From Escherichia coli (GTDB lineage: Bacteria; Pseudomonadota; Gammaproteobacteria; Enterobacterales; Enterobacteriaceae), in the NCBI RefSeq assembly GCF_044324875.1, contig NZ_CP172185.1: a DNA stretch of 64,000 nucleotides; one strand, given 5' to 3'. A program made the translations under genes and the position numbers. Shown here one piece after another: positions 23,582-62,983 of this stretch. The notes under the pieces are model-generated. The model saw only the letters and a program-made list of their open reading frames with translations, did not search any database and was not told where the DNA came from. Positions within the stretch are counted from its first letter, which is position 1. Every line of letters begins with the position of its first letter.

Positions 23582-23596
23582 TTAGTATAAAAAAGC
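23582..23596. repeat. Prophage attachment core, bio-proximal junction (attR): ttagtataaaaaagc
   Basis: Exact 15-bp lambda common core; identical copy at 62969..62983; flanked on the phage side by Int arm-type sites (cagtcactat, gtgacctg). Confidence 0.9.
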
Positions 23597-23742
23597 TGAA
23601 CGCGAAACAGCAAAAGCCAATAATATCAATGTGTTAAAATACATTTAGTCTAAAAAATAGACTTCATGATACTACAAAACACAACATATCCAGTCACTAT
23701 GAATCAACTACTTAGGTGGTATTAGTGACCTGAGACAGAGCA

Positions 23743-23784
23743 TTAGCGCAAGGTGATTTTTTGTCCTCTTGCGCTAATTTTTTG
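23743..23784 (+). terminator. sib/tI-like hairpin terminator in the att P' arm
   Basis: 10-bp stem ttagcgcaag / cttgcgctaa followed by TTTTTTG; same strand as int; sits where lambda sib lies relative to the core. Confidence 0.5.
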
Positions 23785-23939
23785 TCATCAAACATATCGC
23801 ACTCCAGAGAAGCACAACACCTTGCAGTCCAGTGCAAAGCTTTGTGTACCAGAGTTTTCCTCATCAACTACCGCAAGTATCGATCGATTGAGACTTGGAT
23901 GATAGACTTCATACCTTTCAGAACTCATTGATTAAATAA

Positions 23940-24302
23940 ATGTTAAATATATTTGCAAGGTACACCTCGATTGGTGTGCTGAACACACTTATACACTGGG
24001 TGGTTTTTGGTGTATGTATCTATGCCGCGCATACCAATCAGGCTCTGGCAAACTTCGCAGGTTTCGTTGTGGCTGTGAGTTTTAGCTTCTTCGCGAATGC
24101 AAAATTCACATTCAAAGCATCAACTACAACGATGCGCTACATGTTATATGTCGGGTTCATGGGAACACTGAGTGCTACTGTTGGATGGGCTGCTGATAGA
24201 TGCGCACTTCCCCCGATGATAACTCTTGTCACCTTCTCCGCCATCAGCCTGGTGTGCGGTTTCGTCTATTCAAAGTTCATTGTCTTTAGGGATGCGAAAT
24301 GA
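23940..24302 (+). CDS. gtrA: Bactoprenol-linked glucose translocase (flippase) GtrA
   Basis: 120 aa, four hydrophobic segments; first gene of a three-gene gtr cassette. Confidence 0.8.
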
Positions 24303-25228
24303 AAATTTCTTTAGTCGTTCCGGTCTTTAACGAAGAGGCCACGATACCTATTTTTTATAAAACCGTGCGCGAATTTGAAGGGCTTCAGCAGCATGAAGTC
24401 GAGATAGTCTTCATAAACGATGGCAGCAAAGACGCTACAGAATCAATTATCAACGAGCTTGCTGTTGCCGACCCGCTTGTGGTTTCGCTGTCGTTCACAC
24501 GTAACTTCGGCAAAGAACCCGCCCTGTTCGCAGGTCTGGACCATGCTACCGGGGAGGCAATTATCCCGATTGACGTTGATCTGCAAGACCCTATCGAAGT
24601 TATTCCTCACTTGATAGAGAAATGGCAGGCCGGTGCAGATATGGTTCTGGCTAAACGCTCTGACCGCTCCACTGACAGCAGGCTGAAGCGTAAATCTGCT
24701 GAGTGGTTCTATAAACTTCATAACAAAATCAGCAACCCTCAGATAGAAGAGAATGTTGGCGACTTCCGGCTCATGTCTCGCGAAGTAGTAGAAAATATTA
24801 AGCTCATGCCAGAACGAAACCTGTTTATGAAGGGTGTGCTGAGCTGGGTTGGTGGTCGAACCGATGTCGTAGAATATGCGCGAGCAGAACGCGTTGCAGG
24901 AAGCACAAAGTTCAATGGATGGAAGCTATGGAACTTGGCGCTGGAAGGGATCACTAGCTTCTCAACATTCCCGCTTCGCATGTGGACCTATATTGGGTTA
25001 TTTATTGCATGTATATCATTTACATACGGTTCATGGATGATAATTGATAAATTAATTTTTGGTAATAATGTACCTGGATACCCTTCAATTCTTGTATCAA
25101 TATTGTTTCTTGGCGGCGTACAACTAATTGGTATTGGTGTACTTGGAGAGTACATAGGACGTATTTATATTGAAGTTAAGCAGCGCCCAAGATATGTTTT
25201 AAAGGATCAGAAAAATGATTGCAAATAA
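24299..25228 (+). CDS. gtrB: Bactoprenol glucosyltransferase GtrB (GT2 family)
   Basis: 309 aa; N-terminal GT2 domain with DxD-type motifs (NDGSKD, DVDLQD), C-terminal TM helices; 4-bp overlap with gtrA. Confidence 0.85.
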
Positions 25229-26702
25229 AAACAAAACACCTTTCCATTGGTTCTTGATATCTGTTTTTATATATTTCACCCCCATCATCATGGCAAATAT
25301 TCATTATGTAGATGATCAGGGAAGAGCTATATGGGGGTATACTGGATGGGCTAGGGATGGTAGACCTTTGGCTGAAATGTTGATGATTGCATTGAATTTC
25401 AACATGCACATAACGGACTTATTCCCATTTCCTGCAATATTATCAGTATTTTTGATATCTGTTTGCCTGTATTTTTTTAGCAGGATGTTTATATCGACAG
25501 ATAATAAATTTATTGGACTGTTGGTTCCTCTTGGTATTTTATCAAGCCCATTTTTAATTGAAAATGCAATGTATCGCTTTGATGTTTTACCGATGTTCAT
25601 AAGTATTGCATTGTCATTCTCAGTTGTAATATTTAATTTCAAAAAGACAATTTTAAATATTTCTTTTGCCGCCCTGTTAACATTATTTATATTGTCTATA
25701 TACCAAGCATCATTAAATTTCATGCTGGTTATTATTCTGTGTAAATATATTTACATGTACTTTAACTCAGATAGTAACAGACATCTATTAACTTACCTCA
25801 TAGAAAAGACGGTATCATTAGTTATAGGTGTTGCATTATATTTTTTGGTGGTTATTCCTTTATTTTTAACTGTTGTTGGGGACCCGGATCACCCATCAAT
25901 TAAAACTGAAGGCATTTTTTCAGTTATATATGAAAACTTAAAATTTTATCTTCATTCAATATCTAGTGGTATTTTTGGGGAATCAGGACGAGTTGCGTTT
26001 ATAGTAATATTTTTATTTTTCATTGCAATGACGACATTCATCGCGCTAAAGAAATCAATACCTAATAAAAGTATTACTGGTATTATTAATTTTTTAATTA
26101 CAATAACATCACCAGTAACAGCTTTGATATTGTCTTTTGCTACTCTATTACCACTTCAGCATCACATCGACGCCCCAAGAGTGATGATCGGTTTTTCTGC
26201 TACGATGTTGTTCTTATTCATGATTGTTTATCTTTTCTCGCGAGAAACAAAAAATTCAATAACATATATACTTGTAATTCCTCTGATTTATGTTTTTGGT
26301 TTTTTATGTTCATACACAAATGCAATGACAGAAGAAAAAAACATAACCACAGTTCTGTTTCATCAGATTAAAAATGATGCTTTCGAGTTAAGCGGAAAAA
26401 CAAATCAGATACTTATTTTTAATGGTAAAAAGAAAGACAATGATGTTTTTGTAAACGCACGAAATAATTACCCGTTAATATCTAGATTTTTCCCAGAGTA
26501 TTTCTATAATTGGGATTGGCCATTCCCTTATATGAATAGAGTTGGAGTTTACTTTAAACACCCTGGGAATACAAACATTGCAAGTGTGTTAAATGAAAAA
26601 ACCTTTTGCTCAACCGCAAAGATTAAAAGAGCATATGAATATAACTTATACTCATATGATGATATTATTGTAGTTGATTTTGACAAAAACATTTGTCAGT
26701 GA
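25215..26702 (+). CDS. Serotype-specific O-antigen glucosyltransferase (Gtr type-specific, polytopic)
   Basis: 495 aa, many TM segments, strongly AT-rich, third position of gtr cassette. Confidence 0.7.
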
Positions 26703-26882
26703 TTATTATGGCGCATCGATACTTTATATTGATGCGCCATAAATTAATCAAGTATTTGTTCCATCAGCTCGCTGCCATGATGAAGCTGTGCCGTTATACC
26801 ATATTGGAAGACCTAGCGTTGTATCGTAGTATTCAACTGGCACAATTGGAGAGACAGGCCTCTGCGCAGTTGTACCATATAA

Positions 26883-27032
26883 CAAAGATGTCAACGGAGA
26901 GGTGTAGGCCGCAAACTGACTGATGATGAAAAAAGGCGGCTGAATGCGGTACTCGACTACATCGACGCAGTGACAGCAGTTGATGCTGCCCCTGCGCCTG
27001 ATATCAACTGGCCCGCTCCCCCGGTTGCGTAG
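26883..27032 (+). pseudogene. Remnant of a tail-fiber-assembly (Tfa) C-terminus in inverted orientation
   Basis: Plus-strand frame encodes ...[38 protein letters not shown], homologous to the C-terminus of the adjacent minus-strand Tfa; no N-terminal part present. Confidence 0.45.
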
Positions 27033-27408
27033 GCCACTCTATTTCGGGTGCCGCTGAGGTATCAACACGGTTCAGCAGTACCCTGTATTTTTTCCACGCC
27101 AGCAGTAACGTCTGTTCATCGTCTGTCGCCATTTCCAAATCAACGGCATCCTGCAGCGGTGCTATTGCGTTATTTGCTACGGTCAGTAGTGCTGATTTCT
27201 GCAGCTCAGCCTCCGCAACTAACGCGTTGTGAGAGCGTTCTGGGGGAGGTGGCGCGGTAAATACTCCGTCTGAATATGACCAACCGATGCCAGCATCGCC
27301 GTTTAACGGAACTAAATTACCAGCCTCTGGTTTCCATTCAGAAATTCCGTCCCAGATAATGACATCAATAACAACGTTATTATCAACAACTGCATAAACA
27401 TCATTCAT
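27004..27408 (-). CDS. Tail fiber assembly protein (Tfa chaperone)
   Basis: 134 aa; N-terminal [11 protein letters not shown]... and C-terminal WPxxP motif; immediately downstream of the tail fiber gene. Confidence 0.75.
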
Positions 27409-28341
27409 TTACATGTACTCCCGAATTACCAGCACGCCATTAGCTCCGTGCCCGCCACGTCCTGACGTGTGTGAATAGCTATTATCGTATGCACCCCCGC
27501 CGCCGGAGCCAGAGCAAACTCCAGAATTACCGCTCAGTTGCCCAGCGCGGCCGCCGCCACCCCAATAGCTCGATGCCCCATTGCCTACTAATAGCGCCTG
27601 GCCCGCCTGTCCGTCTGAACCGTCTCCGCCTTGTTCAGTTTTATAACCGCCAGAGCCTGAACCACCGAGCCCGCCAGCGGTATTTGTAGCGCCGCCCCAT
27701 TGCCCACCCTGGCCGCCGAGCGCAGTTAATGTCATGAACGAACTATGACCGCCATTATTTCCAGACCCTGGCCCATTGGCACCACTACCACCGCTACCAA
27801 TTGTCACTGTATAGGTCCCTGGCCCGGCATCGTTGTCTGTCGCATAAATAGTGGCAAAAACAGTACCTCCGGCTCCTCCGCCAGCCCCTGAAAATGTCTG
27901 ATTTGCGTTCTCCGCGTTACATCCACCGCCACCGCCGCCCGCCGCAGTCAGAATAACGTCAATTCGTTTTACGTCAGCTGGCCACGTATATGAACCCGAC
28001 GATGAAAAAACGACAGTTTTGCTGTAACGCCCCGAGCCATCTCCCAAACCAAGGTTTTCGAGAGCCGTTTTCACCGTGCCATCCGATTTGATATCGCCAA
28101 ACGGATTCTTGCGGCTTAACAGCAGCTCACGAAGCGCTGTAAGCAACTGGTCATGCCGCCCCTTCTCCAGGCTGGCACCGGATGCCTCCACCACGCTGCA
28201 AAGCTCCTCCTGCAACATGTCAAAGTAGTCATCATCCAGATCGGTGGCAGGCGTGCCGGTCTGGGGGTTACCACGGGTAAAACCGTTCTTACCCGCGCCG
28301 AACTTATCCTTCTGCGCGGTTTTCGTGTCTATACGATGCAT
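27409..28341 (-). CDS. Tail fiber protein with glycine-rich repeat region
   Basis: 310 aa; long Gly-rich low-complexity stretch; between DUF2313 baseplate gene and tfa. Confidence 0.7.
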
Positions 28342-28344
28342 GAA

Positions 28345-28929
28345 TTACTCCGGATATTTAAAAATTACGTAGGTATGCGACGGGCAGAGTTTGTTAAGCA
28401 CGCACTCGACAACGGTGTCCCCCCAGATACGCAGTGCGGAATCACAGGGATCGCCACATGTCATCCAGGTGGTGTTGGTGGCAGCTGGCATATTGACCTG
28501 CCAGTAATACCGCCATTCCGGCGCATTCACCGCGTCAGTACAGGCCGATGAGCAGGTGAACGTGCTTTTGTCGTATCGCGTGATGGTGGCATCTGGTCTG
28601 CCCAGGGCAGCAAGCTGCGCAAGGTAAAAATCCTCATTGATGCCACCCGCCAGGTTAACCTTCGCATCCAGCCGTTGCTGACGCTGGCGAAGGGTCTGCG
28701 TCCCTGCCGGAATACATTCATCCGGCAGGCCGCACAGACGCTCCCAGCGGTTTATCAGTTCGGTGGTGGTGCGCGGATCCAGCTCCCGCATCAGGGCATC
28801 CGCACGCTGATGAGCACGGGTTAATGACTGTGCCGCACCGGCAATCGCCGGATCGCTGGCTGACCACGCCGGACCAGGGGGCAACAGTGCCGACAACAGA
28901 CGGATGTAATCATCGTTTGTCACGTCCAT
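28345..28929 (-). CDS. Phage tail protein, YmfQ/DUF2313-like
   Basis: 194 aa; position between baseplate J and tail fiber as in e14/Mu-like tails. Confidence 0.65.
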
Positions 28930-29978
28930 GAAATCGTCCCCAGAACCGCCAGTTCATTTTTTGCAATGGAGATATTGTCCGCCGGAGCAAGCAACTGATG
29001 GCTGTATTCCCCGTTCGCACCGGAAATCGCTTCACTGATACGCGATACCTTAAGCTCTCCCTGCGGATAACCATCACGCAGCAGGAATGAACGCAACTCC
29101 GCGGTGATGGCAGCCCGTATTTCCGGTGTGTCCGGCGTCACGCGGATATGAAAATCCACTTTGTGCGCCACCGGCCTGAATACATACAAATCAGAGCCTG
29201 CCACCGGGGCCAGTGGCTCGATATGTTGTCTTGCCGCCGTTTCCGTTGATTCTTCCGGAATGGGGTTAATCAGGTCACTGCTGGCAATCATCACACCGAC
29301 AGTCCCCGTTCCCATCCAGTGTCGGTATGTCCATGCGCGGGTAATGCCGGGCACTTCTTTAGCCCAGACGACATAGTCCCCGTCAGCCCCGCCCTGAGGC
29401 GTCCAGTAATACCGCTCAATGACGCGGGCGCGCCACGTTTCCAGCTCTTCAGTATCAAATCCACCTGTCAGGGTATCTGCCTCGCCGGAAGACGGCAGAC
29501 CATTAACCGGCGTGACCAGGATTAATGACGTACCGTCGTCAGCGTTACCGACCGCGCCTGCACTTGAGCAGGCGATCGGCACGCGCAGGACACCACCGGT
29601 GCTGGTTGCATCGGCAGTTGCCGTGTACTGAACCAGGTCATCGCGCTGAATAACACTTCCGGCGGTCACCTTCAGGCCATCGCTGACACCTTCCCAGCGC
29701 ATATACCCGCTGGCAGCCGTGGCCCCCTTGCGCGGACACCGTTTCATCGCAGCATGTCGCGCCAGCCAGGACTCATCGCACAGGTCAGGCAGCATGTTCA
29801 TTGCCAGATAATCGATGTACCCGTAAACCGTATGCAGCGCCGCCGCATACACCTTTGCCCGCACGTCTTCATCCATGCGCCGGAGCGTGTCGCTGACGTC
29901 CAGCCTGGCGAATAAATCGTTACGGAGCATACTGATATTTTCTGCCAGCGTCGGGCGCTGAAATTCACTGTCCGCCAT
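28920..29978 (-). CDS. Baseplate J-like protein (Mu gp47-like)
   Basis: 352 aa; position and size in Mu-type baseplate module. Confidence 0.75.
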
Positions 29979-30393
29979 GCGTTATCGCACTCCACAGATC
30001 ATCAAAAGAAATCATTACCGGTCCGTCACGACGCCAGAGAGTGATACTGTTACCCAGTTCATTAATCCCGGTGCGGCGGATATCCAGATCAATACGGGAC
30101 ACCACGCCGTCATCAATCATCCATTGCAGGCATTCGCGGATATACCCCCTTACCGTCTGCACCAGTTGATTGGTCAGTTTGCTGCGCTGAAGCAGCCACA
30201 GTCGGGAGCCGTAACGGTCATTCTGTACCTCAGGCCAGGTATCCCCCCACCATCCCATCGGGACGTCGGCATTGTCATCAGGCTCCGCCCGCCGCCAGGT
30301 AAACAGGGAAATCACCACGGCGCGGGTCAGCGGATCCAGCGGTGCGCTGGCGCAGGTGCGTTTACCGTTCACCGTCAGCCACAGTTCCATCAT
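29965..30393 (-). CDS. Baseplate protein, Mu gp46-like
   Basis: 142 aa; position in module. Confidence 0.65.
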   Translation of the reverse strand: MMELWLTVNGKRTCASAPLDPLTRAVVISLFTWRRAEPDDNADVPMGWWGDTWPEVQNDRYGSRLWLLQRSKLTNQLVQTVRGYIRECLQWMIDDGVVSRIDLDIRRTGINELGNSITLWRRDGPVMISFDDLWSAITHGGQ

Positions 30394-30938
30394 GCCTCCA
30401 TCGATTTATCAGGTTTGTCGGTGTTACTGCCCTGACCGTTCTCTCTGTGACGATGCCCGTTATAGGCAAGCCGCATCGCTGACATGGTGGTGCCGCCGGA
30501 GTCGCACAGGTCTTTCACCTGTCCTGTCACTTCCAGGTCCATTTCAAAACGTGCTTCAGGTGCATTGCGAAACGTGATCGTTTTACCTGCACCGTCCACC
30601 ACAATCCCCTCCCGGGTCAGCGTCACGGACTGCCCCTGATCGTCATAGACAGCCACCTCCCCCGTCTGCAGCCCTTTCAGGCGGTAGCGACGGTCCGACA
30701 CCGTAACAACCACCGCATGAGAACGGTCGCCATCCGGAAACAACACCACCGCTTCCGCACCACTGTTTGCCCTTGCAGTAAAACCGTAGGGTTCAAGATG
30801 TTCAACCCCGGCTTTGGGTTCACCGGCAATCAGGGACACATCCACGGTCTGACATTTCGTGGCGGCACTGATGCTTTTCACCACGGCCCGCCCAATCAGG
30901 CCGAGGAGTTGTCGCTGCATGGCTTCAATCGTCCTCAT
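30390..30938 (-). CDS. Baseplate assembly protein V-like (central spike)
   Basis: 182 aa; gpV/Mu gp45-like; position in module. Confidence 0.7.
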   Translation of the reverse strand: MRTIEAMQRQLLGLIGRAVVKSISAATKCQTVDVSLIAGEPKAGVEHLEPYGFTARANSGAEAVVLFPDGDRSHAVVVTVSDRRYRLKGLQTGEVAVYDDQGQSVTLTREGIVVDGAGKTITFRNAPEARFEMDLEVTGQVKDLCDSGGTTMSAMRLAYNGHRHRENGQGSNTDKPDKSMEA

Positions 30939-32017
30939 CAGAACGGGTCCTCCTGTACTCTGGCTTTTTTCTTTTTCCGCGCGCCGGGGGCTTCGGGTTC
31001 AGGCAGATAAGCATCTGGTGGGCCGACACGGATTTCCGTCAGGGTGCCGTTCTGGTCCTGAGTAAACGTGACTTCCGAAACAAGCAGTTCGGTGTTGTCG
31101 AAACCACAGACCGGATCAAAGACAATCACCCGCTGGTTGGGCTGCCACAGCGTACCGTTACCCTGTCGCCAGCCCTGCACCACATAGGTGGTTTCATCCG
31201 TCCGCGCCGCCCGTTGTCGGGCTTCAAAGTCCGCACGGGCAATACAGCCAGCCCCCGTAGCCTGTCCTGTCTGCCTGATATACATCGGACGGTAACGGGC
31301 AATAAATGCGTCCTCTGTGCGGGCCCGCAGCGCGGTGGTGGTGGCCTCACCGAAATCATCGTCGTTTCCGGCACGCTGCCCCGCCACCTGGTAAACAGAA
31401 AACCGCTCCCGGATACTCTTCTCCGTATCGCAGGAAAGGATGTTTTCCCCGAGTACCAGCGCGGTATGTGCCCGCGTTGAGCCAATACCACCAATCACCA
31501 GCCTGCCGTGCGGGTCGTCATAAGCCAGCGCCTGCTGCTGACCGAGTATTTTGTTGATTACCTCAATCACCGTTTCACCGTGATCAGGCTGAACATCAGG
31601 AATAACACCCGACGGCGCACCGCTGTTCACCACCTCAATGCCGAAAGGCGCAGCAAGCGCCTGCGCAATCTGCACCAGCGAGCGTCCGTTAAACTGTGTC
31701 GGTTCGGCTGCACAGTCAATCAGGTCAGCCGTCAGACTACGTCCGGCAATACCGGTGCTGACCGAACGGGCATCGTAACGAACGGGCGTCGCCTCCACCC
31801 AGCCGGTGATCACCAGCTCATCACCAATCAGCACCTCCACTTTTGAACCGTTTTTAATGCGCGGCTGAAGCGTGGTGATACCCTCATCACCCGGCCACTG
31901 GCGGGTGATCTCCACACTGAAATCCCGCGCCAGCCGTTCAATACCGGCACCGATGCGCACCGATGTCCAGCCATTCCACTCCCGGCCATTTATCCGTAGC
32001 GTGACATTGTCGTTCAT
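30938..32017 (-). CDS. Baseplate hub protein, Mu gpP/late-control-D-like
   Basis: 359 aa; follows DNA circularization gene as in Mu. Confidence 0.7.
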   Translation of the reverse strand: MNDNVTLRINGREWNGWTSVRIGAGIERLARDFSVEITRQWPGDEGITTLQPRIKNGSKVEVLIGDELVITGWVEATPVRYDARSVSTGIAGRSLTADLIDCAAEPTQFNGRSLVQIAQALAAPFGIEVVNSGAPSGVIPDVQPDHGETVIEVINKILGQQQALAYDDPHGRLVIGGIGSTRAHTALVLGENILSCDTEKSIRERFSVYQVAGQRAGNDDDFGEATTTALRARTEDAFIARYRPMYIRQTGQATGAGCIARADFEARQRAARTDETTYVVQGWRQGNGTLWQPNQRVIVFDPVCGFDNTELLVSEVTFTQDQNGTLTEIRVGPPDAYLPEPEAPGARKKKKARVQEDPF

Positions 32018-33390
32018 TGCACTGGCACCTTCAGAGGGATCACCGGCACAAAGCCGGGATGCGTAATGGCATTACGCCGGATAATGTCCGCGTCACGCGC
32101 CGCGTTATCAAACCAGGTCGCCGCCAGCACCAGCGCGGGTAAAACCTCATCCGGTGTGCGCTGAATGATCCGCGCAGACTGTTCAAGGCGCATGTTGATA
32201 TCCGCATTCAGATCTGCTTTCACCCGGCGCAGCGCCAGAAACAGCGCATCACTGGTTGTACGGGACAACTCCTTATCAATTGTCGTATTCAGTGTGTCGC
32301 GAATGTCAGTCAGTTCTTCCCACGTCGGCAGGTCAACCGTGCTTTTCACCGCCGGTGCATTGTTCAGTGCCGGATGCGTGACGGAAGGCCAGCCAGTGCT
32401 CTGCGCAGGTGTTGTTGCCTGCCCCATTGCGGCATTCTGCATCACCGCGGAAGTTGTTGGCGCAGGCAATCGTGTGACGGCATACGCCGCTTCGCTGATT
32501 GCGGTCGTACGAAGGGTGCTGGCAACCACGTTACGCTGCTGCGTCGCCGTAGCGGTAGTTTTACTGTCCGTTTTCCAGACGCCGCGCGGTTGCAGATCGC
32601 TGCCGAGGCTGACACCGGAAAGCGTTTTGATCATGGTGACCAGGTCGCTGGCGTTACCATAAAGGCGTTTCCCGGTACGCCACATTTTCTGCACCTGCTC
32701 AACGAAATTTTTGCCTGACGATGGCGGCGGCAGAAGTACCGAGATATCCCCCTGCAACAGCCTGGCGGCATCCGATACGGCAGAATCCACCACTTTCATC
32801 GCATCAGAAACATACCCAAGCATTGTGCTGGCATTACCGACGACGTCGTTCTGCACAAAATCTGCCACGCCATCGATACTGAAACCACTGAAACTGTCAC
32901 TGATGCAGTCATCCAGTGCAGAACAGGATGACATCAGCGTCTGCGCCGTCGCCGCACCTGATGTGGGGTAAGAGAGTTCTCCCGCTTCGACAAACTTCAG
33001 GTCAAAGCGGACAATACGCCCTTCACTCTTCGATGTGCTGACCCGAACCTCCCCGTCAACACAGACTTTCAGCTCACCGTATGTCGGATGGACAAGCGTG
33101 CCGGGACCGGGTTTATTCAGCGCGTCAATCAGGCGATCGCGCTGGTCAAAGCAGTCATCTCCCACCACATAAGCCGTGATGGACGGGCGAAAAGTGATTT
33201 TCCCCAGGTCTTCGGTATAGGGTTTGTCGCGGTTCGGGTATTCATGTGTTTCCACACGGCGACCGGTTCCCGCACTTTCTTCTTCAACCTTAAACGGCAC
33301 GCCGCGAAATGACGCGTCCTGAAGTCTGTCACGCCAGCCTGAAGACGACGAAAGTAATGAAGGTCGGGTGGGAAATGAGGATAAATCCAT
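32014..33390 (-). CDS. DNA circularization protein N-like (Mu gpN family)
   Basis: 458 aa; immediately downstream of tape measure. Confidence 0.65.
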   Translation of the reverse strand: MDLSSFPTRPSLLSSSSGWRDRLQDASFRGVPFKVEEESAGTGRRVETHEYPNRDKPYTEDLGKITFRPSITAYVVGDDCFDQRDRLIDALNKPGPGTLVHPTYGELKVCVDGEVRVSTSKSEGRIVRFDLKFVEAGELSYPTSGAATAQTLMSSCSALDDCISDSFSGFSIDGVADFVQNDVVGNASTMLGYVSDAMKVVDSAVSDAARLLQGDISVLLPPPSSGKNFVEQVQKMWRTGKRLYGNASDLVTMIKTLSGVSLGSDLQPRGVWKTDSKTTATATQQRNVVASTLRTTAISEAAYAVTRLPAPTTSAVMQNAAMGQATTPAQSTGWPSVTHPALNNAPAVKSTVDLPTWEELTDIRDTLNTTIDKELSRTTSDALFLALRRVKADLNADINMRLEQSARIIQRTPDEVLPALVLAATWFDNAARDADIIRRNAITHPGFVPVIPLKVPVQ

Positions 33391-33414
33391 AGACTGACCT
33401 CAAAAAGGACTGCA

Positions 33415-35322
33415 TTATCGTGGAAAACGAAAAGGGGAATACCCCACATCGTGCGTGATTTTCATCAGGGGATCGGCTTTGCCCGGTACATCAATTATCT
33501 TCATACCTGGCGGAGCATTCTCGAACGTGACTTTCAGTTCGCTGTGCTGTGTCATGGAAGAAGATGGATTCAACAGCGGAACATTGGGTTTGTACTGGCT
33601 CAGGCTGGCCTGATACTGCTCGTACTCTTTACGATCAAAAAAAGGCGTCCAGTCTGAAGCCAGAAACAGCCCTTTATTATCCAGCCAGTTAACCGTATCT
33701 TCAGGAACAACACTTTCCAGAGTATCTTTAACCGGCTCATACATCAGGGTTCCCAGAAAACCATATCCCCCGGCCTTCCCGATAAAGCCGCGGCCTTTCC
33801 CCATCAATCCCGTTTCTGCCGATACCTTCCCCAGCGTACGCATCTCTCTGGTCACTGCGGTAATGGATTTGGTAACGTCAGCAACCCATTTGGTTGCCAT
33901 AAACAGGGCAATCGCTTTCAGAACAGTTTCCCATCCCCCCATCGCCTGCGCCGTTTCATCCACCACGTGCCAGACTTTTTTTATGACAGGGCCTACGGTT
34001 TCCCAGTTATCAATAATGAGGTAAGCGCCACCAACCAGAAGAGCAATCAGCCCCTTAGCTGGCGTCATATTCATCACACCGCCGAGAACTTTCATAATTC
34101 TGGACAAAGAGCCTGCAGCGGCTCCCACCGTCAGTAAGGCCAGACCGATTTTAGCAATGGTCTTAACGAGCTCCGGGTTTTCACGGACAAACGTTCTCAC
34201 TTCCTCAAGGAGCGGTTTTACCGCTTCAAGACCATCATTAACCTCAGGAAGAAACGTTTCCCCCAGCGTGGAAGAAATGGCATCAAGTTGATTTTGCAGA
34301 AGTAAAAGCTGGTTTTCCGTCGTCGCTGCCCTCGAAGCATATTCCTTCTGCATCGAACTGCCATACTGCTGGGAATCCGCAACCCGCCTGAAGTTGGTAC
34401 GCAACAAATCAAGGTTAGTCAGCAGAGGTGCTATCGCGCCCAGAGACTCTTTCCCGAACAGGGCATTCAGCACAGCGGCCCGTTTTTCTTTAGGCACTTT
34501 AGCCATCGCATCCAGTACAGACAGCATGGTGCCCCGGGCATCTTTCTGCATATCAGCAGCTAATTTCTTCGGATTGATCCGCAGAAAACGCAATGCCTGT
34601 TTCTGCGATTTTGTCGCAGAATTTCCCGCGGTCAGGGAAAGCATGAAGTTCTTGATCCCTGTGGCGGCAATTTCTGACTCCACGCCCATCCCGGCAATGG
34701 TTGCCCCCATTGCCGCAATTTCGCCGGAAGCCACACCTGCAACACCACCTAAAGGACCAATACGCGTAACAATATCGGAGATTTTCTTCGCATTCGCCGG
34801 GCCGGTATTACCAAGGTAGTTGATTTTGTCAGCCAGCCCGGCCACTTCATCCTGCGTCATATTAAACGCAGTACGCCACTGGGCCATCATCTGCCCGGAC
34901 TCTTCAGCCGTTGTATCAAAGGCCACGCCCATCTTCACCGCATCAGTGGCAAACTGCATCAGTTCATCACGTGCAATCCCGGCCTGACCGCCAGCCGCCA
35001 CAATTTCCGCGATCCCGTCTGCAGACATGGGAAGCTCTGTAGACAAAGCGCGTACCTGCTCCGTCATGGCCTTAAATGCATCCGGCGTATCCAGACCGTC
35101 CACCACTTTGCGGACATCAGCCATCTTCGATTCAAGGGTGATGGCTGATTTTACAGGGAGTGCCAGTGCCCCCATTATTGCAGTACCCGCCCCGGCAGCA
35201 CCCAGAGCAAGGCTGGAGACTTCTTTCTGAAATCCCTTAAGCTGACGCTGCATACCTTTAAGCGGGCCGGATAGCCTGTCAACGGCGGTGATGATGGCTT
35301 TCAGCTGAAAATTATCAGCCAT
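33415..35322 (-). CDS. Tail tape measure protein
   Basis: 635 aa, Ala/Gly-rich helical protein between chaperone and baseplate genes. Confidence 0.8.
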   Translation of the reverse strand: MADNFQLKAIITAVDRLSGPLKGMQRQLKGFQKEVSSLALGAAGAGTAIMGALALPVKSAITLESKMADVRKVVDGLDTPDAFKAMTEQVRALSTELPMSADGIAEIVAAGGQAGIARDELMQFATDAVKMGVAFDTTAEESGQMMAQWRTAFNMTQDEVAGLADKINYLGNTGPANAKKISDIVTRIGPLGGVAGVASGEIAAMGATIAGMGVESEIAATGIKNFMLSLTAGNSATKSQKQALRFLRINPKKLAADMQKDARGTMLSVLDAMAKVPKEKRAAVLNALFGKESLGAIAPLLTNLDLLRTNFRRVADSQQYGSSMQKEYASRAATTENQLLLLQNQLDAISSTLGETFLPEVNDGLEAVKPLLEEVRTFVRENPELVKTIAKIGLALLTVGAAAGSLSRIMKVLGGVMNMTPAKGLIALLVGGAYLIIDNWETVGPVIKKVWHVVDETAQAMGGWETVLKAIALFMATKWVADVTKSITAVTREMRTLGKVSAETGLMGKGRGFIGKAGGYGFLGTLMYEPVKDTLESVVPEDTVNWLDNKGLFLASDWTPFFDRKEYEQYQASLSQYKPNVPLLNPSSSMTQHSELKVTFENAPPGMKIIDVPGKADPLMKITHDVGYSPFRFPR

Positions 35323-35406
35323 GCTTCATCTCCTCATTTATACGGACGGCCTCTGCCTCCAGATCAGCAAAGTGGGAAATAGCCGTCCGGCGAAGTTCAA
35401 GTGGGT

Positions 35407-35730
35407 TTAATTTCCAGAACCACGCGACATTGTAGAATCGCTTCCTGAGGTCTCTTCCGTCTCCAAGCCGGTAAAAAAACGCATTACAATCATGCCTGCC
35501 TTGAAAATATCCAGCTTCGTCATCTGCGCTGCAGACGAGCGCGGGATCCCGGCCAGAAGCGGGATATATTTCAGCGCCACCTGACTGTCCATTTTCATAC
35601 CACCATCAGGCGAAACAGAGAAAGGGAACCCCAGCGCCTCAATCTCGTCATACGTAGGCTCACGTATTTCCAACACATGCAGTGTTTCTTTGTGGGCGAT
35701 GATCGGTTTTTTAAGTACAAGCTCAATCAC
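35407..35730 (-). CDS. Tail assembly chaperone
   Basis: 107 aa between tail tube and tape measure. Confidence 0.55.
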   Translation of the reverse strand: MIELVLKKPIIAHKETLHVLEIREPTYDEIEALGFPFSVSPDGGMKMDSQVALKYIPLLAGIPRSSAAQMTKLDIFKAGMIVMRFFTGLETEETSGSDSTMSRGSGN

Positions 35731-36083
35731 TGGTAATCCCCTTCTTCACCGTGAAATTCAATATCGACCGTGCCTTCTTCGGCATTATGGTTCGCTTCGC
35801 CGTGCAGCCAGGCTGACGACAATACATAGACCTGACCGTTCGCCAGCTCGGCAGTGATGGTCATCTCATCAGACGAGGTGATTTTGCTCACCGGAAAATT
35901 CTTCGGTACCTTGAAGGTCCCTTTGACATAAGGTGCACGGTGAGTTTCCTTGCGGTCCACTGAACCGTCCAGACCGATGATGTCATCATTAACCGTTTTG
36001 TTCATGGGCACCTCAATGCCGCCGGTCAGCGATAGCTGCTGACCGTCAATCTTGAAATAACAGGTTCCCCCGATACGGGCCAT
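35727..36083 (-). CDS. Tail tube protein (contractile tail)
   Basis: 118 aa; directly downstream of sheath gene with 1-bp overlap. Confidence 0.75.
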   Translation of the reverse strand: MARIGGTCYFKIDGQQLSLTGGIEVPMNKTVNDDIIGLDGSVDRKETHRAPYVKGTFKVPKNFPVSKITSSDEMTITAELANGQVYVLSSAWLHGEANHNAEEGTVDIEFHGEEGDYQ

Positions 36084-37579: not shown

Positions 37580-37741
37580 CGGTATTCACCTTTTTATTCA
37601 CGCGCCGGATATCACCCGCTGCTTCACGGCGCAGCCAGTAGTTGTTCTCGTCAACATTTCGCCCTTCGGCGGGCAAAAGGTCGCCGCGGGCAGGGTCAGG
37701 CACTGACCGCCCTTTAACAGGTTTCACAAACATGAGGATCC

Positions 37742-39510: not shown

Positions 39511-39512
39511 AC

Positions 39513-39713: not shown

Positions 39714-39761
39714 GATTCTTCACCCGTCAGAACAGGGGCGCGGTTCCGCGCCCCTGAGTGA

Positions 39762-40967: not shown

Positions 40968-40981
40968 CGTATTTCTCCTGA

Positions 40982-46332: not shown

Positions 46333-46451
46333 TTACACCTCACTTTATTTTAGAGGTGATTATAGCAAATTACATTCAATCAGGGCTGTACAGTTTTTTA
46401 TCAATTATACTTCGCCATCTCGCTATTATATAACAATATCTTTACATATTG

Positions 46452-48094: not shown

Positions 48095-48097
48095 AAA

Positions 48098-57934: not shown

Positions 57935-57986
57935 GTTGTTGGGGATAACCAGATTAACCGAATCCTTGTTGTTGGGGAATAACCAG
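57935..57986. repeat. Direct repeat pair gttgttgggg(a)ataaccag upstream of the 144-aa gene
   Basis: 18/19-nt copies at 57935..57952 and 57968..57986, just upstream of the 57919 start codon. Confidence 0.4.
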
Positions 57987-58206
57987 GTCCACCTCGCCTG
58001 ATGTGGCTAAAAGCAGGCACATAACAGCTAAGTATTTTCAACCAGAGAGAATCCTTAGCGTTGTGGTGAATGCGGCTCAGCGCACGCGGGTTAAGGTTGA
58101 GGCTGACAGTCGACCTTCTGTGGATACCCACCCGCCTGGTGTGCAACCTTCGCCAGGCACCGGGAGGCACCCGGCACCACAACTTTATGCTGCGTGTAGT
58201 CTTGGC

Positions 58207-58250
58207 GGTACCAGCTTTTACCCTTGCTTCCGGCTGGTACCGTCCTTTTT
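58207..58250 (+). terminator. Rho-independent terminator/attenuator in leader upstream of yfdP-like gene
   Basis: 9-bp stem ggtaccagc / gctggtacc with 17-nt loop followed by gtccTTTTT; GC-rich region with overlapping non-coding-looking ORFs. Confidence 0.5.
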
Positions 58251-58387
58251 ACAAAACAGAGAAGAGCATTACCGGACGACGGGCTCATAACTCAATCCAT
58301 CCGGGCGGCTGCCACCGCAGGTGTTCTTCTCTGTTTTGTGGAGAAACTAATCGGCTTTGCAGGGTCGATATGATGAGGAGCAGCAAA

Positions 58388-58750
58388 ATGGCTAGCGAAC
58401 GCAGTACTGATGTGCAAGCATTTATCGGGGAGCTGGACGGCGGCGTATTTGAAACCAAAATCGGCGCAGTTCTCAGTGAAGTCGCTTCCGGTGTGATGAA
58501 CACGAAAACCAAAGGTAAGGTCTCACTCAACCTGGAAATCGAACCATTTGATGAAAACCGTGTGAAAATCAAACACAAACTCTCATATGTTCGCCCGACT
58601 AACCGCGGGAAAATTTCCGAAGAAGACACCACCGAAACGCCGATGTATGTCAATCGCGGTGGTCGCCTGACTATTCTGCAGGAAGACCAGGGACAATTAC
58701 TGACTCTTGCCGGTGAACCTGACGGAAAACTCCGCGCAGCAGGTCATTAA
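58388..58750 (+). CDS. YfdP-like early protein (CPS-53 family)
   Basis: 120 aa from ATG 58388 (MASERSTDVQAFIGELDGG...). Confidence 0.65.
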   Translation: MASERSTDVQAFIGELDGGVFETKIGAVLSEVASGVMNTKTKGKVSLNLEIEPFDENRVKIKHKLSYVRPTNRGKISEEDTTETPMYVNRGGRLTILQEDQGQLLTLAGEPDGKLRAAGH

Positions 58751-58815
58751 TATCGTTCTTAATTAACCGATTATTTATCTCATCACTGAATATCTTAATA
58801 TAGTGAGGACTTATT

Positions 58816-59640
58816 ATGTCTCAAAACTTAGACGCAACCGCATTTAATCAAATCCATGCCCTTATTTCTGCTCAGGGTGTTAATGAAATTATCAGTAAGA
58901 TTGGTGCCGATGCTGTGGCATTGCCTGAGAATTTCCGCATTCATGATCTGGAAAAATTTAATTTAAATCGCTTCCGTTTCCGTGGTGCGCTTTCCACTGC
59001 CAGCATCGATGACTTTACCCGTTATTCTAAAGATCTTGCAGATGAAGGCACCCGCTGCTTTATCGATGCTGATAATATGCGTGCCGTCAGTGTGCTTAAC
59101 CTGGGTACTATTGATGAACCAGGTCACGCAGATAACACCGCCACTCTCAAACTGAAAAAGACAGCACCGTTCTCTGCTCTGTTGTCTGTTAATGGCGAGC
59201 GTAACTCCCAGAAATCACTGGCAGAATGGATTGAAAACTGGGCCGACTACCTTGTGGGCTTTGATGCTAATGGTGACGCCATTCAGGCAACCAAAGCGGC
59301 GGCGGCTATCCGTAAAATCACAATTGAAGCGAACCAGACCGCTGATTTTGAAGATAATGACTTCAGCGGCAAACGCTCCCTGATGGAGTCTGTCGAAGCG
59401 AAGACCAAAGACATTATGCCAGTGGCATTTGAATTTAAATGCGTTCCGTTTGAAGGCCTGAAAGAACGTCCATTTAAATTACGCCTCAGCATTATCACTG
59501 GCGATCGTCCTGTACTGGTTCTGCGCATTATTCAGCTGGAAGCGGTGCAGGAAGAAATGGCTAACGAATTTCGTGATCTGCTTGTTGAGAAATTCAAAGA
59601 CAGCAAAGTAGAAACCTTTATTGGTACTTTCACCGCCTGA
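58816..59640 (+). CDS. YfdQ-like protein (DUF2303)
   Basis: 274 aa; size and context match the yfdQ family of CPS-53-type prophages. Confidence 0.7.
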
Positions 59641-59767
59641 TTTCATTACTGCAAATGCCCCTGCGGGGGAATTTATGGAAACGTAATTAACTCAATAATC
59701 GCCGGATGGTGAGGACTTCCTTTTACCAGAATTCAGCGCGGTGCAGCGCATATACGTGGAGAACAAA

Positions 59768-60304
59768 ATGTCATTTATTAAAACTTTTTCCGGGAAGCAT
59801 TTTTATTATGACAAGATAAATCAAGACGACATCGTTATTAACGATATCGCGGTTTCCCTTTCAAATATCTGTCGCTTTGCAGGACATCTTTCACATTTCT
59901 ACAGCGTCGCCCAACATGCGGTGCTTTGCAGCCAACTGGTGCCGCAGGAATTTGCTTTTGAAGCGTTAATGCATGATGCAACAGAAGCGTATTGCCAGGA
60001 CATCCCGGCGCCACTGAAACGCCTTCTTCCTGACTATAAACGGATGGAAGAAAAAATAGACGCCGTAATCCGTGAGAAATACGGGTTACCCCCAGTTATG
60101 AGTACACCCGTGAAATATGCCGATCTCATCATGCTGGCAACTGAACGCCGCGATCTCGGGCTTGATGATGGCTCTTTCTGGCCAGTACTGGAAGGTATCC
60201 CGGCAACAGAGATGTTCAAAGTTATTCCACTGGCACCGGGCCATGCCTACGGGATGTTTATGGAACGCTTCAACGAGTTATCGGAATTACGCAAATGTGC
60301 ATAA
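59768..60304 (+). CDS. HD-domain 5'-deoxynucleotidase, YfdR-like
   Basis: Start ATG 59768 (MSFIKTFSGKHFYY...) with SD ggag; HD motif (LMHDATEAY). Confidence 0.7.
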   Translation: MSFIKTFSGKHFYYDKINQDDIVINDIAVSLSNICRFAGHLSHFYSVAQHAVLCSQLVPQEFAFEALMHDATEAYCQDIPAPLKRLLPDYKRMEEKIDAVIREKYGLPPVMSTPVKYADLIMLATERRDLGLDDGSFWPVLEGIPATEMFKVIPLAPGHAYGMFMERFNELSELRKCA

Positions 60305-61173
60305 CTCATGTAGTTAGTTTTTCTGGCGGGAGAACATCCGCATATCTTGTTCACCTGATGGAAGAACAAAGAAAGGCTGGCAATAACGTCTGCTACATCT
60401 TTATGGATACCGGTTGCGAACATCCGCTGACATACCGCTTTATCCGGGAGGTTGTGAAGTTCTGGGACATACCACTAACTGTGTTACAGGTCGATATAAA
60501 TCCTGAGCTTGGGCAGCCAAATGGTTATACAGAATGGGAGCCAACGGATATTCAGACACGAATGCCGGTGCTTAAACCGTTTATGGACATGGTTAAAAAG
60601 TACGGCACGCCATACATCGGCGGCGCGTTCTGTACTGACAGGCTAAAACTCATCCCTTTCACGAAATACTGCGATAACCATTTCGGGCGAGGTAATTACA
60701 TCACATGGCTGGGTATTCGTGCAGACGAACCCCGTAGGCTGAAACCGAAATCGGGCGTCCGGTATCTTGCCGAGCTGTCAGATTTTGATAAGTCGGATGT
60801 TATCCGGTGGTGGCGAAAACAACCTTTTGATTTGCAAATCCCGGAGCATCTCGGGAACTGTGTTTTCTGCATCAAAAAGTCAACGCAAAAGCTGGGGCTT
60901 GCATGTAAAGACGAACCAGGTCTGATGCGAGTTTTTAATGAGCTGGTTACAGGCAAACACGTCAGGGATGGTCATCGCAGAACAGGTAAAGACATTATGT
61001 ACCGTGGTCACCTGACGCTTGACGGAATTGCCAGAATGTCTGCCAACAGCGACTACAGAAATTTGTATCAGGCGATGGTACAGGCCAGGCGATTCGATAC
61101 CGGCTCGTGTTCAGAGTCATGTGAAATCTGGGGTGATCAATTGGAATTGGAATTCGAAGAGGTAGGGGTATGA
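60295..61173 (+). CDS. PAPS reductase-like PP-loop ATP pyrophosphatase family protein
   Basis: 292 aa; N-terminal PP-loop SFSGGRTS (SGGxDS-type); C-terminal Cys cluster. Confidence 0.7.
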   Translation: MCITHVVSFSGGRTSAYLVHLMEEQRKAGNNVCYIFMDTGCEHPLTYRFIREVVKFWDIPLTVLQVDINPELGQPNGYTEWEPTDIQTRMPVLKPFMDMVKKYGTPYIGGAFCTDRLKLIPFTKYCDNHFGRGNYITWLGIRADEPRRLKPKSGVRYLAELSDFDKSDVIRWWRKQPFDLQIPEHLGNCVFCIKKSTQKLGLACKDEPGLMRVFNELVTGKHVRDGHRRTGKDIMYRGHLTLDGIARMSANSDYRNLYQAMVQARRFDTGSCSESCEIWGDQLELEFEEVGV

Positions 61174-61514
61174 CAACCGAAATTAACTACCATGCACTGC
61201 TTGAGCGCGCACGGAATAAAGTGCAGAGCATTGAGTTCGCCTTAACACAGAGTGCATTCGCTGAGATTCGCGCTGAGCTTGAAAATGATTTAGAACTGGC
61301 ACGGATTGCACTGGCATCTCTGGAAGTTGAGCCAGATGAACGCGCAGCCTATGAATTATTTATGGAAAAGCGTTTCGGTAAAACAGTCGATCGTCGGAGA
61401 GCAAAAAACGGCGATAACGAATACATGGCATGGGATATGACTCTCGGTTGGATCATCTGGCAGCAACGAGCTGGTATCCATTTTTCAACAATGTCACAAC
61501 AAGAGGTGAAATAA
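61170..61514 (+). CDS. Hypothetical early protein
   Basis: 114 aa; start overlaps stop of upstream gene. Confidence 0.45.
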   Translation: MTTEINYHALLERARNKVQSIEFALTQSAFAEIRAELENDLELARIALASLEVEPDERAAYELFMEKRFGKTVDRRRAKNGDNEYMAWDMTLGWIIWQQRAGIHFSTMSQQEVK

Positions 61515-61628
61515 TAGAGCCATACAGCCTCACACTCGATGAGGCCTGTTCATTGCTCAATGATATCCAGACCTACCATCGCCGCATCAATGCGGCTTTT
61601 TCTTGCGTGTAATTGCGGAGACTTTGCG

Positions 61629-61847
61629 ATGTACTTGACACTTCAGGAGTGGAACGCTCGCCAGCGACGCCCAAGAAGCCTTGAAACAGTTCGTCGATGG
61701 GTGCGCGAATGCAGGATATTCCCTCCTCCGGTTAAGGATGGAAGAGAGTATCTGTTCCACGAATCAGCGGTAAAGGTTGACTTAAATCGACCAGTAACAG
61801 GTAGCCTTTTGAAGAGGATCAGAAATGGGAAGAAGGCGAAGTCATGA
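61629..61847 (+). CDS. xis: Excisionase Xis (lambda type)
   Basis: 72 aa from ATG 61629 (MYLTLQEWNARQRRPRSLETVRRWVRECRIFPPPVKDGREYLFHESAVKVDLNRPVTGSLLKRIRNGKKAKS), matching lambda Xis; overlaps int start. Confidence 0.9.
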   Translation: MYLTLQEWNARQRRPRSLETVRRWVRECRIFPPPVKDGREYLFHESAVKVDLNRPVTGSLLKRIRNGKKAKS

Positions 61848-62895
61848 GCGCCGGGATTTACCCCCTAACCTTTATATAAGAAACAATGGATATTACTGCT
61901 ACAGGGACCCAAGGACGGGTAAAGAGTTCGGATTAGGCAGAGACAGGAGGATAGCAATTACTGAAGCAATACAGGCAAACATTGAGTTATTTTCAGGACA
62001 CAAACACAAGCCTCTGACAGCGAGAATCAACAGTGATAATTCTGTTACGTTACATTCATGGCTTGATCGCTACGAAAAAATCCTCGCCAGCAGAGGAATC
62101 AAGCAGAAGACACTTATAAATTACATGAGCAAAATTAAAGCAATAAGGAGGGGGCTACCTGATGTTCCACTTGAAGACATCACCACAAAAGAAATTGCAG
62201 CAATGCTCAATGGATACATAGACGAGGGCAAGGCGGCGTCAGCCAAGTTAATCAGATCAACACTGAGCGATGCATTCCGAGAGGCAATAGCTGAAGGCCA
62301 TATAACAACAAACCCGGTCGCTGCCACTCGCGCAGCAAAATCAGAGGTAAGGAGATCAAGACTTACGGCTGACGAATACCTGAAAATTTATCAAGCAGCA
62401 GAATCATCACCATGTTGGCTTAGACTTGCAATGGAACTGGCTGTTGTTACCGGGCAGCGAGTTGGTGATTTATGCGAAATGAAGTGGTCTGATATCGTAG
62501 ATGGATATCTTTATGTCGAGCAAAGCAAAACAGGCGTAAAAATTGCCATCCCAACAGCATTGCATGTTGATGCTCTCGGAATATCAATGAAGGAAACACT
62601 TGATAAATGCAAAGAGATTCTTGGCGGAGAAACCATAATTGCATCTACTCGTCGCGAACCGCTTTCATCCGGCACAGTATCAAGGTATTTTATGCGCGCA
62701 CGAAAAGCATCAGGTCTTTCCTTCGAAGGGGATCCGCCTACCTTTCACGAGTTGCGCAGTTTGTCTGCAAGACTCTATGAGAAGCAGATAAGCGATAAGT
62801 TTGCTCAACATCTTCTCGGGCATAAGTCGGACACCATGGCATCACAGTATCGTGATGACAGAGGCAGGGAGTGGGACAAAATTGAAATCAAATAA
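61825..62895 (+). CDS. int: Integrase Int (lambda-type tyrosine recombinase)
   Basis: 356 aa, essentially lambda Int (MGRRRSHERRDLPPNLYIRNNGYYCYRDPRTGKEF... with R-H-R-Y catalytic residues); adjacent to the gal-proximal att core. Confidence 0.95.
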   Translation: MGRRRSHERRDLPPNLYIRNNGYYCYRDPRTGKEFGLGRDRRIAITEAIQANIELFSGHKHKPLTARINSDNSVTLHSWLDRYEKILASRGIKQKTLINYMSKIKAIRRGLPDVPLEDITTKEIAAMLNGYIDEGKAASAKLIRSTLSDAFREAIAEGHITTNPVAATRAAKSEVRRSRLTADEYLKIYQAAESSPCWLRLAMELAVVTGQRVGDLCEMKWSDIVDGYLYVEQSKTGVKIAIPTALHVDALGISMKETLDKCKEILGGETIIASTRREPLSSGTVSRYFMRARKASGLSFEGDPPTFHELRSLSARLYEKQISDKFAQHLLGHKSDTMASQYRDDRGREWDKIEIK

Positions 62896-62968
62896 TGATT
62901 TTATTTTGACTGATAGTGACCTGTTCGTTGCAACAAATTGATAAGCAATGCTTTTTTATAATGCCAAC

Positions 62969-62983
62969 TTAGTATAAAAAAGC
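62969..62983. repeat. Prophage attachment core, int-proximal junction (attL): ttagtataaaaaagc
   Basis: Identical to the 23582..23596 copy; phage-side arm carries lambda P-arm-like sequence (gactgatagtgacctgttcgttgcaacaaattgataagcaatgc). Confidence 0.9.

Follow-up and report, generated by a model that had tools for sequence, protein, structure and literature searches.

A probable SfV-like prophage carrying a lambda-type integration cassette at the lambda attachment site of Escherichia coli

Prophage boundaries and insertion site

The window examined in this study was a 64,000-nucleotide (nt) stretch of the Escherichia coli contig NZ_CP172185.1 (RefSeq assembly GCF_044324875.1), and it contained one prophage of 39.4 kb at positions 23582-62983. 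The prophage ran exactly core to core: the 15-bp lambda attachment (att) core GCTTTTTTATACTAA was matched exactly on the minus strand at 23582-23596 and at 62969-62983, and no further copy was found in the window even at one mismatch, with none expected from 100 shuffles. The flanking genes, bioB/bioA/ybhB on the left and ybhC on the right (with ybhJ through gal lying beyond in related genomes), were those of the classical E. coli lambda attB. Counted without one core copy, the prophage comprised 39,387 bp at 49.9% GC. No tRNA genes were found in the window. The two junctions were as follows.

23582-23596, minus strand: left att core (bio-side junction, B'-O-P), an exact 15-bp match, with ybhB directly to the left
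62896-62983, minus strand: P' arm (three arm-type sites and the H' site) and right att core (62969-62983), lambda-identical over the aligned P' arm, with ybhC next

As read from its sequence, the interval very likely represents a single temperate phage genome of the SfV-like lambdoid myovirus group, integrated at the lambda attachment site. Integration of one circular genome was indicated by the position of the sib element and the P arm, which sat at the far bio end of the prophage, 39 kb from int. A first-pass annotation of this DNA had described a single, complete-looking prophage, and the description held, as the boundaries ran core to core, the lengths of the compared open reading frames (ORFs) equaled those of Shigella phage SfIV, and only dam was broken.

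Integration cassette

The integration functions were ordered xis, int, P' arm, 15-bp core, P arm, and sib/tI. Apart from the P' arm and the cores given above, they comprised the following features.

61629-61847, plus strand: xis, lambda/HK97 type
61825-62895, plus strand: int, lambda/HK97 type
23597-23851, plus strand: P arm with P2, P1, X2, X1, an H2-like site for integration host factor (IHF), and the sib/tI hairpin (approximately 23731-23790)

Int shared 99.2% amino acid (aa) identity with lambda Int from end to end (356 of 356 aa aligned), and Xis shared 98.6% with lambda Xis over 72 of 72 aa. At the DNA level, 61527-62983 was 99.2% identical to HK97 and 61581-62983 was 97.9% identical to lambda, so that the alignment called for by the first-pass annotation bore out its claim that int-xis is lambda-like in nucleotide sequence. 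Identities of the cassette to 434, HK629, HK106, and others were 97-98%.

To compare the attachment site with that of lambda, attP was rebuilt by joining both prophage ends and was then aligned. The core agreed with lambda at 15 of 15 positions, and the P' arm with its three arm-type sites was lambda-identical over the aligned part. Of the arm-type sites in the P arm, P1 matched lambda at 18 of 20 positions and P2 at 19 of 20. The Xis site X2 was unchanged, and an IHF-consensus sequence was kept at H2. The P arm was 87% identical to lambda 27470-27742 and, up to 23792, 91% identical to HK97; its sib/tI hairpin and U-run were conserved, with a predicted fold of -49 kcal/mol (z = -3.8). The pI CII-box sequence TTGCGTGTAATTGC was present at 61603-61616. 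The likeness to lambda, HK97, and 434 thus extended across Int/Xis, the core, the P' arm, P1/P2, X2, sib/tI, the pI CII box, and attB. The earlier recognition of a lambda-type Int/Xis/att/sib cassette was borne out by these values, and its description as essentially lambda was right for the type and for Int and Xis. It went too far for the remainder, since the P arm was only 87% lambda and the xis side was nearer to HK97/434: upstream of xis, the prophage followed HK97/434 and differed from lambda. A further difference from all three phages was that the cassette stood here in a myovirus without detected lambda CII, CIII, or N.

The cassette stood in place of the thrW-, icd-, or argW-specific integrases of SfV/SfIV, e14, and CPS-53, respectively. 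Within the prophage, no SfV-, e14-, or CPS-53-type Int, second integrase, or invertase was found (tblastn with SfV Int gave no match), and no thrW, icd, or argW att fragment was found within the interval. The Sf phages have their own thrW-specific Int/Xis and a 46-bp tRNA core (PMC3636060), neither of which was detected in this prophage. A thrW-type Int is not a defining feature of the wider SfV-like group, because the group uses several sites (PMC3603311), and vB_EcoM-689R6 has an e14-type int.

Virion and early genes

The remainder of the backbone consisted of virion, packaging, lysis, and early genes.

26907-27032, plus strand: second tail-fiber assembly gene fragment, convergent with tfa (PGAP annotation of the sibling GN25)
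27004-27408, minus strand: Tfa, and 27409-28341, minus strand: tail fiber with a StfP-like N-terminus and a Gly-rich C-terminus (PHROG tail-fiber families)
28345-38302, minus strand: contractile-tail module
38299-45278, minus strand: head and packaging module, including neck proteins, protease, portal, YmfR, and a P27-family small terminase
45320-45329, minus strand: cos, the 10-nt cohesive-end sequence
45395-45745, minus strand: HNH endonuclease adjoining cos and the terminase genes
47100-48424, minus strand: lysis cassette with Rz/Rz1, endolysin (47618-48094), and holin (48098-48424)
50189-56307, minus strand: rightward early operon, 87-98% identical to SfIV/SfV
56398-57072, plus strand: cI repressor of the LexA/S24 type
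57292-61514, plus strand: leftward early operon, with a small ORF, yfdP-like gene, yfdQ, yfdR, a NinC-like phosphoadenosine phosphosulfate (PAPS) reductase gene, and an ORF at 61170-61514
57485-57919, minus strand: ECs1072-family gene, transcribed against the leftward early operon just past cI

The order of these genes (cI/cro, replication, Q, lysis, cos, head, tail) was lambdoid, with a contractile-tail gene set. Positions 28040-45336 aligned with SfIV in one 17.3-kb alignment at 96.9% nt identity, with SfV, SfII, and SfI giving similar values, and the early region 50271-60302 was 87-98% identical to SfIV/SfV at the nt level.

The tail module encoded YmfQ/gp48, J/gp47, gp46, V/gp45, a P-like hub, an N-like DNA-circulation protein, the tape measure, an assembly protein, tube, sheath, DUF2635, and the tail terminator. 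Matches to PHROG families were obtained for the tube, tape measure, hub, baseplate wedge proteins, fiber, and Tfa; together with the Mu homologues described below, they confirmed the contractile tail (sheath, tube, tape measure, Mu N/P-like proteins, baseplate, fiber, and Tfa) that had been proposed from the first reading of the DNA. In the head and packaging module, the HK97-family capsid gene lay at 39762-40967 and the large terminase gene at 43045-44778 (minus strand), and NCBIfam models TIGR01554, TIGR01543, TIGR01537, and TIGR01558 were all matched above their cut-offs. The proposed HK97-type head and HNH-terminase pair was likewise supported, with matches to the capsid, protease, portal, P27 small terminase, and HNH families; the HNH gene was 97% identical to SfV orf53. 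The cos sequence TGCCCGCCCC occurred once, between the HNH and small terminase genes. It is the experimentally mapped cos of SfI (PMC3636060), and the genome ends of SfIV mapped to 45336/45337. The lysis cassette was 91% identical to SfIV/SfV, and the names of its genes were taken from PGAP annotations of sibling prophages.

The fiber tip and Tfa (27004-28040) were unlike those of SfIV/SfV, and the fiber was 99.2% identical to that of 042p1, a prophage of E. coli 042. The second tail-fiber assembly gene fragment suggests the relic of a frozen invertible fiber segment of the Mu G-type or e14 P-type, as it faces the functional tfa and no invertase was found. A fiber gene split by frameshift, as PGAP annotates it in sibling prophages, was considered and rejected; the fiber here was one continuous ORF of 310 codons, and the sibling was collinear with it without gaps.

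The rightward early operon encoded Q, DUF968, KilA-N, RusA, a LexA-like protein, a dam pseudogene, YfdN/PerC, an O-like replication protein, a YmfM-like protein, YmfL, and a Cro-like protein (56107-56307). Positions 54928-57221 shared 98.9% DNA identity with e14, and the cI repressor was 100% identical at the aa level to e14 YmfK and 99.6% identical to SfV cI. Because this repressor is identical to that of e14, K-12 strains carrying e14 are probably immune to the phage and hence poor indicator hosts. The leftward early operon was approximately 97% identical to CPS-53, SfIV, and SfV up to 60302. The yfdP/yfdQ/yfdR-type early genes reported at first reading were recovered in it, at 96.9% DNA identity to CPS-53. 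Its NinC-like PAPS reductase (60295-61173, plus strand) had 79% aa identity to lambda NinC and was not shared with SfIV/SfV. The reductase gene was placed between yfdR and xis, outside any nin region, and gave weak PADLOC matches of the SspD/DndC type. The position and orientation of the ECs1072-family gene were analogous to those of lambda sieB; it had no defense-family match.

Cargo genes

Three groups of cargo genes, which the first-pass annotation had not mentioned, were carried by the prophage: gtrABC, a Kiwa pair, and an orphan nuclease-fold protein gene, the last beside a gene for a membrane-type protein.

23940-26702, plus strand: O-antigen glucosylation operon of low GC, with gtrA (23940-24302), gtrB (24299-25228), and the type-specific gtrC (25215-26702)
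45877-46332, minus strand: gene for a 151-aa membrane-type protein, between the lysis cassette and HNH/cos, with no family match
46509-47078, plus strand: gene for a 189-aa PD-(D/E)XK-fold protein in the same slot (cargo region 45877-47078)
48756-50167, plus strand: Kiwa genes kwaA (48756-49277) and kwaB (49283-50167), GC approximately 0.39, opposite to the late operon and between Q and holin

In the rebuilt circular form, the order was xis, int, attP, gtrA, gtrB, gtrC, with the gtr operon directly beside att. According to PMC3636060, all glucosylating serotype-converting phages have the layout gtr-attP-int-xis. The gtrA/gtrB genes were 80% identical to those of SfIV/SfV, 98.6% identical to those of 042p1, and 81% identical to CPS-53 yfdG/yfdH. 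GtrC matched phrog_4829 at 1e-73, and the names of the gtr genes were taken from the PGAP annotation of a 99.8%-identical sibling. Genome counts here and below refer to 5,426 complete E. coli genomes, and phage searches to 50,697 deposited phage genomes. The type-specific gtrC was found in 34 genomes, one of them from a strain named O17_K12a. In three genomes, the same gtrC adjoined an annotated phage tailspike gene, and it thus travels in another type of prophage as well. E. coli 042 (O44) carried a different gtrC at the same locus.

PADLOC identified KwaA at 1.9e-83 and KwaB (DUF4868) at 2.3e-150, both over their full lengths; the two genes were co-oriented and 5 bp apart, and close homologues are labeled Kiwa KwaB-like by PGAP. 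Judged by these matches, the pair of KwaA, a membrane protein, and KwaB is a complete Kiwa defense system. Kiwa complexes have been described as membrane-associated and as sensing the changes that phage infection causes in the membrane (PMC11785009). Sibling prophages at the same att site held other genes in the slot between Q and holin, annotated by PGAP in one genome as "nucleoid-associated anti-phage protein" and "anti-phage protein". Because siblings hold different defense genes there, the Q-holin and lysis-cos slots behave as hot spots for cargo and defense genes.

For the 151-aa and 189-aa proteins of the lysis-cos slot, no Pfam match was obtained. The 189-aa protein belonged to a small family confined to Enterobacterales, with an invariant D64...E85-x-K87 motif, and its structural model was confident (predicted local distance difference test score, 84). 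In unrelated prophages of Enterobacter, the same lysis-terminase slot contained homologues encoded on the opposite strand. The protein appears to be an orphan with a restriction-endonuclease fold, for which a nuclease-based exclusion function is plausible. PADLOC gave no convincing defense match for ten further early-region proteins, and promoters and terminators predicted in the cargo region were no more numerous than those in shuffled sequence.

Relationship to known phages

The backbone was that of the Shigella serotype-converting myoviruses SfIV, SfV, SfII, and SfI, to which most of the genome was 87-98% identical at the nt level. These phages had their genes in the same order, and the cos and HNH-terminase pair were found in them, as were the HK97-type head, the Mu-like tail, the position of gtr beside attP, and the immunity region. 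Besides their integrase and core, the Sf phages differed from this prophage in the segments that were not shared with SfIV/SfV, namely gtrC, the fiber tip and Tfa, the NinC-like reductase, and the two cargo slots with Kiwa and the nuclease-fold cargo. "SfV-like" phages have been defined as lambdoid Myoviridae and reported at five E. coli integration sites (PMC3603311).

Likeness to e14 was found in four segments at 89-99% identity, one of which was the whole immunity region, and likeness to CPS-53 (KpLE1) in yfdM-N-O and yfdP-Q-R at approximately 97%. Both elements are heavily deleted and have integrases of their own, at icd and argW, respectively. They are decayed remnants of the SfV-like group and thus relatives of this prophage, not donors of its modules. 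Mu resembled the prophage in the tail proteins gp38, L, N, P, and gp45-48, which occurred in the same order at 29-43% aa identity; there was no similarity at the nt level, and the replication and integration strategies of Mu are different. No matches to MuA, MuB, C, Gin, or Mom were found in the prophage, and no homologues of the Mu head, portal, or terminase (Mu T, gp28, and gp29) were detected in it. A backbone assembled from pieces of CPS-53, e14, and Mu, as first proposed, was not upheld, since 28040-45336 was instead that of an SfV-like lambdoid myovirus with 96.9% identity to SfIV. The labels CPS-53 and e14 reflected real sequence kinship, and were mistaken only in naming as sources two deleted remnants of the same group. 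The Mu-type tail could not be retained as a Mu-derived module, as its likeness to Mu was confined to the protein level.

The nearest known counterpart was 042p1, the prophage of enteroaggregative E. coli 042 (ROD15, 877116-917926; Chaudhuri et al. 2010), which had the same att site and 15-bp repeat. The 2010 description of this prophage reported a direct repeat of 15 bp, gtrAB as cargo at its end, and structural genes "highly related to" those of SfV (PMC2808357). Identity to 042p1 was 98.1% over int-xis, 98.6% over ybhB-att-gtrAB, 99.2% over 26798-33330 (from the fiber to the DNA-circulation gene), and 97.6% over 35702-45745 (the other tail genes together with those for head and packaging). 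In its early half, in contrast, 042p1 is lambda/P22-like (N, CII, RecT, a DnaB-type helicase, and nin), whereas the present prophage was SfIV/e14/CPS-53-like there. The two prophages differed also in gtrC, in the tape-measure segment, and in the cargo of the lysis-region slots.

Intactness and proposed life cycle

The ORF lengths of the compared structural, lysis, replication, and regulatory genes were equal to those of their SfIV/SfV counterparts, and the prophage is probably still functional. In its proposed life cycle, Int and host IHF would recombine attP with attB, and, once the SOS response had led to cleavage of the LexA-type cI, Int and Xis (with Fis) would excise the prophage. HNH-assisted terminase would cut at the SfV-type cos and pack the DNA into the HK97-fold head, which would then receive the Mu-like contractile tail. 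The lysogen would express gtrABC, leading to O-antigen glucosylation and thereby to serotype conversion and the blocking of O-antigen-dependent phages. It would also express Kiwa from the Q-holin slot and the orphan nuclease-fold protein from the lysis-cos slot.

Several findings weighed against a functional, lambda-type integrating phage. The gene for the N6-adenine methyltransferase Dam (53077-53762, minus strand) had a 1-nt deletion inside its catalytic NPPY motif, which divided it into two ORFs; it was the sole broken gene found. At the Xis site X1, 3 of 13 positions differed from lambda, 2 of these also in HK97. No homologues of lambda CII, CIII, or N were found by tblastn (E < 1e-3), and the small ORF at the position of N was not arginine-rich. 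The supply of Int without Xis during lysogenization may thus lack obvious partners, and the retained CII box and sib may be vestigial, as CII, CIII, and N homologues were not detected. Alternatively, both sites may answer to unrelated, non-homologous regulators. No complete genome carried the exact right half of the prophage, the best match covering 76% of it, so that this mosaic has no independent replicate to attest its viability among the 5,426 genomes. Function was, in addition, deduced from sequence alone.

Some of these findings would fit a cryptic, defective prophage, unable to excise or form particles, as is the case for e14 and CPS-53: dam was frameshifted, lambda-type control sites stood without their CII, N, and CIII partners, and the exact mosaic was unreplicated in complete genomes. 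Such a state is possible but clearly the less probable one. The compared ORFs were full length relative to those of viable SfIV/SfV, at 87-98% identity, and cos, both att arms, Int, and Xis were intact. No insertion sequence elements or deletions in the style of e14 and CPS-53 were present. The dam lesion may reflect true gene decay or a sequencing error in a homopolymer, and since SfIV lacks dam entirely, the gene is dispensable.

A more far-reaching proposal has two parts: that the lambda cassette works without CII, CIII, and N, with its CII box and sib reduced to vestiges or else under the control of unrelated SfV-type regulators (YmfL, for example), and that the 189-aa protein, encoded in a conserved moron slot, is a single-gene anti-phage or exclusion nuclease of a kind not yet described. 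We regard the two parts together as a tentative suggestion that is rather unlikely to hold in full. If true, the cassette without CII, CIII, and N would be a natural experiment on the portability of the lambda integration-control circuit.

Module junctions, occurrence, and proposed origin of the swap

The exchange of modules reported by the first-pass annotation was real, with an SfV-like backbone and a lambda/HK97 cassette, and its junctions were mapped to two short patches.

61527-61549, no strand assigned: right module junction, the 23-bp sequence GCCTCACACTCGATGAGGCCTGT, identical in SfV, HK97, and the prophage (four-way alignment)
23820-23851, no strand assigned: left module junction, a near-palindromic patch common to lambda (approximately 27470-27510, just beyond sib) and to SfIV upstream of gtrA

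On the xis side, the sequence was SfV-like up to GCCTCACACTCGATGAGGCCTGT and HK97/434-like thereafter, with similarity to lambda only from 61581. This patch was the start of an SfV-type xis frame, of which the first 46 codons survived, ending at 61558; HK97 and 434 carried the same 23-bp SfV-type relic upstream of their own xis. On the gtr side, the sequence was lambda-like to 23851 and SfIV-like from 23820, the overlap being a near-palindrome of approximately 30-40 bp. Both edges of the cassette were short patches already common to the two parental phage types, and the swap would have arisen by homologous recombination at these shared linker patches.

The ybhB-att-gtrA junction was found in 89 of the 5,426 genomes and the yfdR-reductase-xis junction in 71, or approximately 1.3-1.6% of the collection; the carriers came from a variety of hosts and countries. 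With both junctions recurring in dozens of genomes, the swap would be old and would have spread. The left half (22500-47000) was present to 80% or more in 28 genomes, the best being that of strain GN25 with 95% of the query at 99.8%; no genome had 80% or more of the right half at a single location. The exact mosaic is a new combination of a kind already known.

No deposited phage record joined this int to SfV-type structural genes. The xis-int-att query matched 57 records, 42 of them at 95% identity or higher and 15 only at approximately 77%, and all were lambda-, HK97-, 434-, or HK022-like phages, Stx1a-converting phages, or records named as podoviruses; none was an SfV-like myovirus. The rebuilt circular form from yfdR through int, core, and P arm to gtrAB was covered by no deposited phage, and prophage-derived records would be split at att. 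Taken by itself, the lack of such a record would favor a recent, strain-specific, and novel module graft. This explanation is highly improbable, given the occurrence of the same junctions in the above share of complete E. coli genomes, the description of 042p1 in 2010, and the SfV-type xis relic already held by HK97 and 434. A gtr operon in a prophage by attL, between ybhB and ybhC, was also reported for O44 in 2007, as far as Wang et al. are cited on this point in PMC10304059. Two adjacent elements, a lambda-like int-xis-att remnant beside an independent SfV-like prophage, might explain why nt similarity shifted abruptly at 61527-61549 and 23820-23851, but scarcely come into consideration, as the only two att cores bracketed the entire element, the lambda-type P arm adjoined the SfV-type gtr region 39 kb from int, no second integrase or thrW/icd/argW att fragment was present, and both junctions recurred in 71-89 genomes and in 042p1.

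The single integrated SfV-like phage is a genuine yet ordinary mosaic, as SfV-like lambdoid myoviruses freely exchange integration, immunity, and cargo modules. SfI, for example, has been described as a mosaic that combines SfV/e14 sequence with that of lambda, whose early genes it carries at 98% identity (PMC3636060). A P22-like phage integrating upstream of ybhC has been reported (bioRxiv 10.64898/2026.05.19.726188), and the lambda-type cassette and attB thus serve siphovirus, podovirus, and myovirus prophages alike. The prophage is useful for its junctions mapped to short shared linker patches, its three lysogenic-conversion and defense cargoes, its cargo hot spots, and the mismatch in its regulation.

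Two further candidates for phages of this type were rejected. vB_EcoM-689R6, considered as a lambda-att phage, proved to be an e14-type relative that was intact, lay at icd, and had an integrase of the e14 type, and prophage H of O104:H4 at ybhC carried lom and was lambda-like. An Rfam search found no RNA family within the prophage, its sole match being a molybdenum cofactor (Moco) riboswitch in the chromosomal flank at 13913-14057 on the minus strand (103 bits, E = 1e-24).

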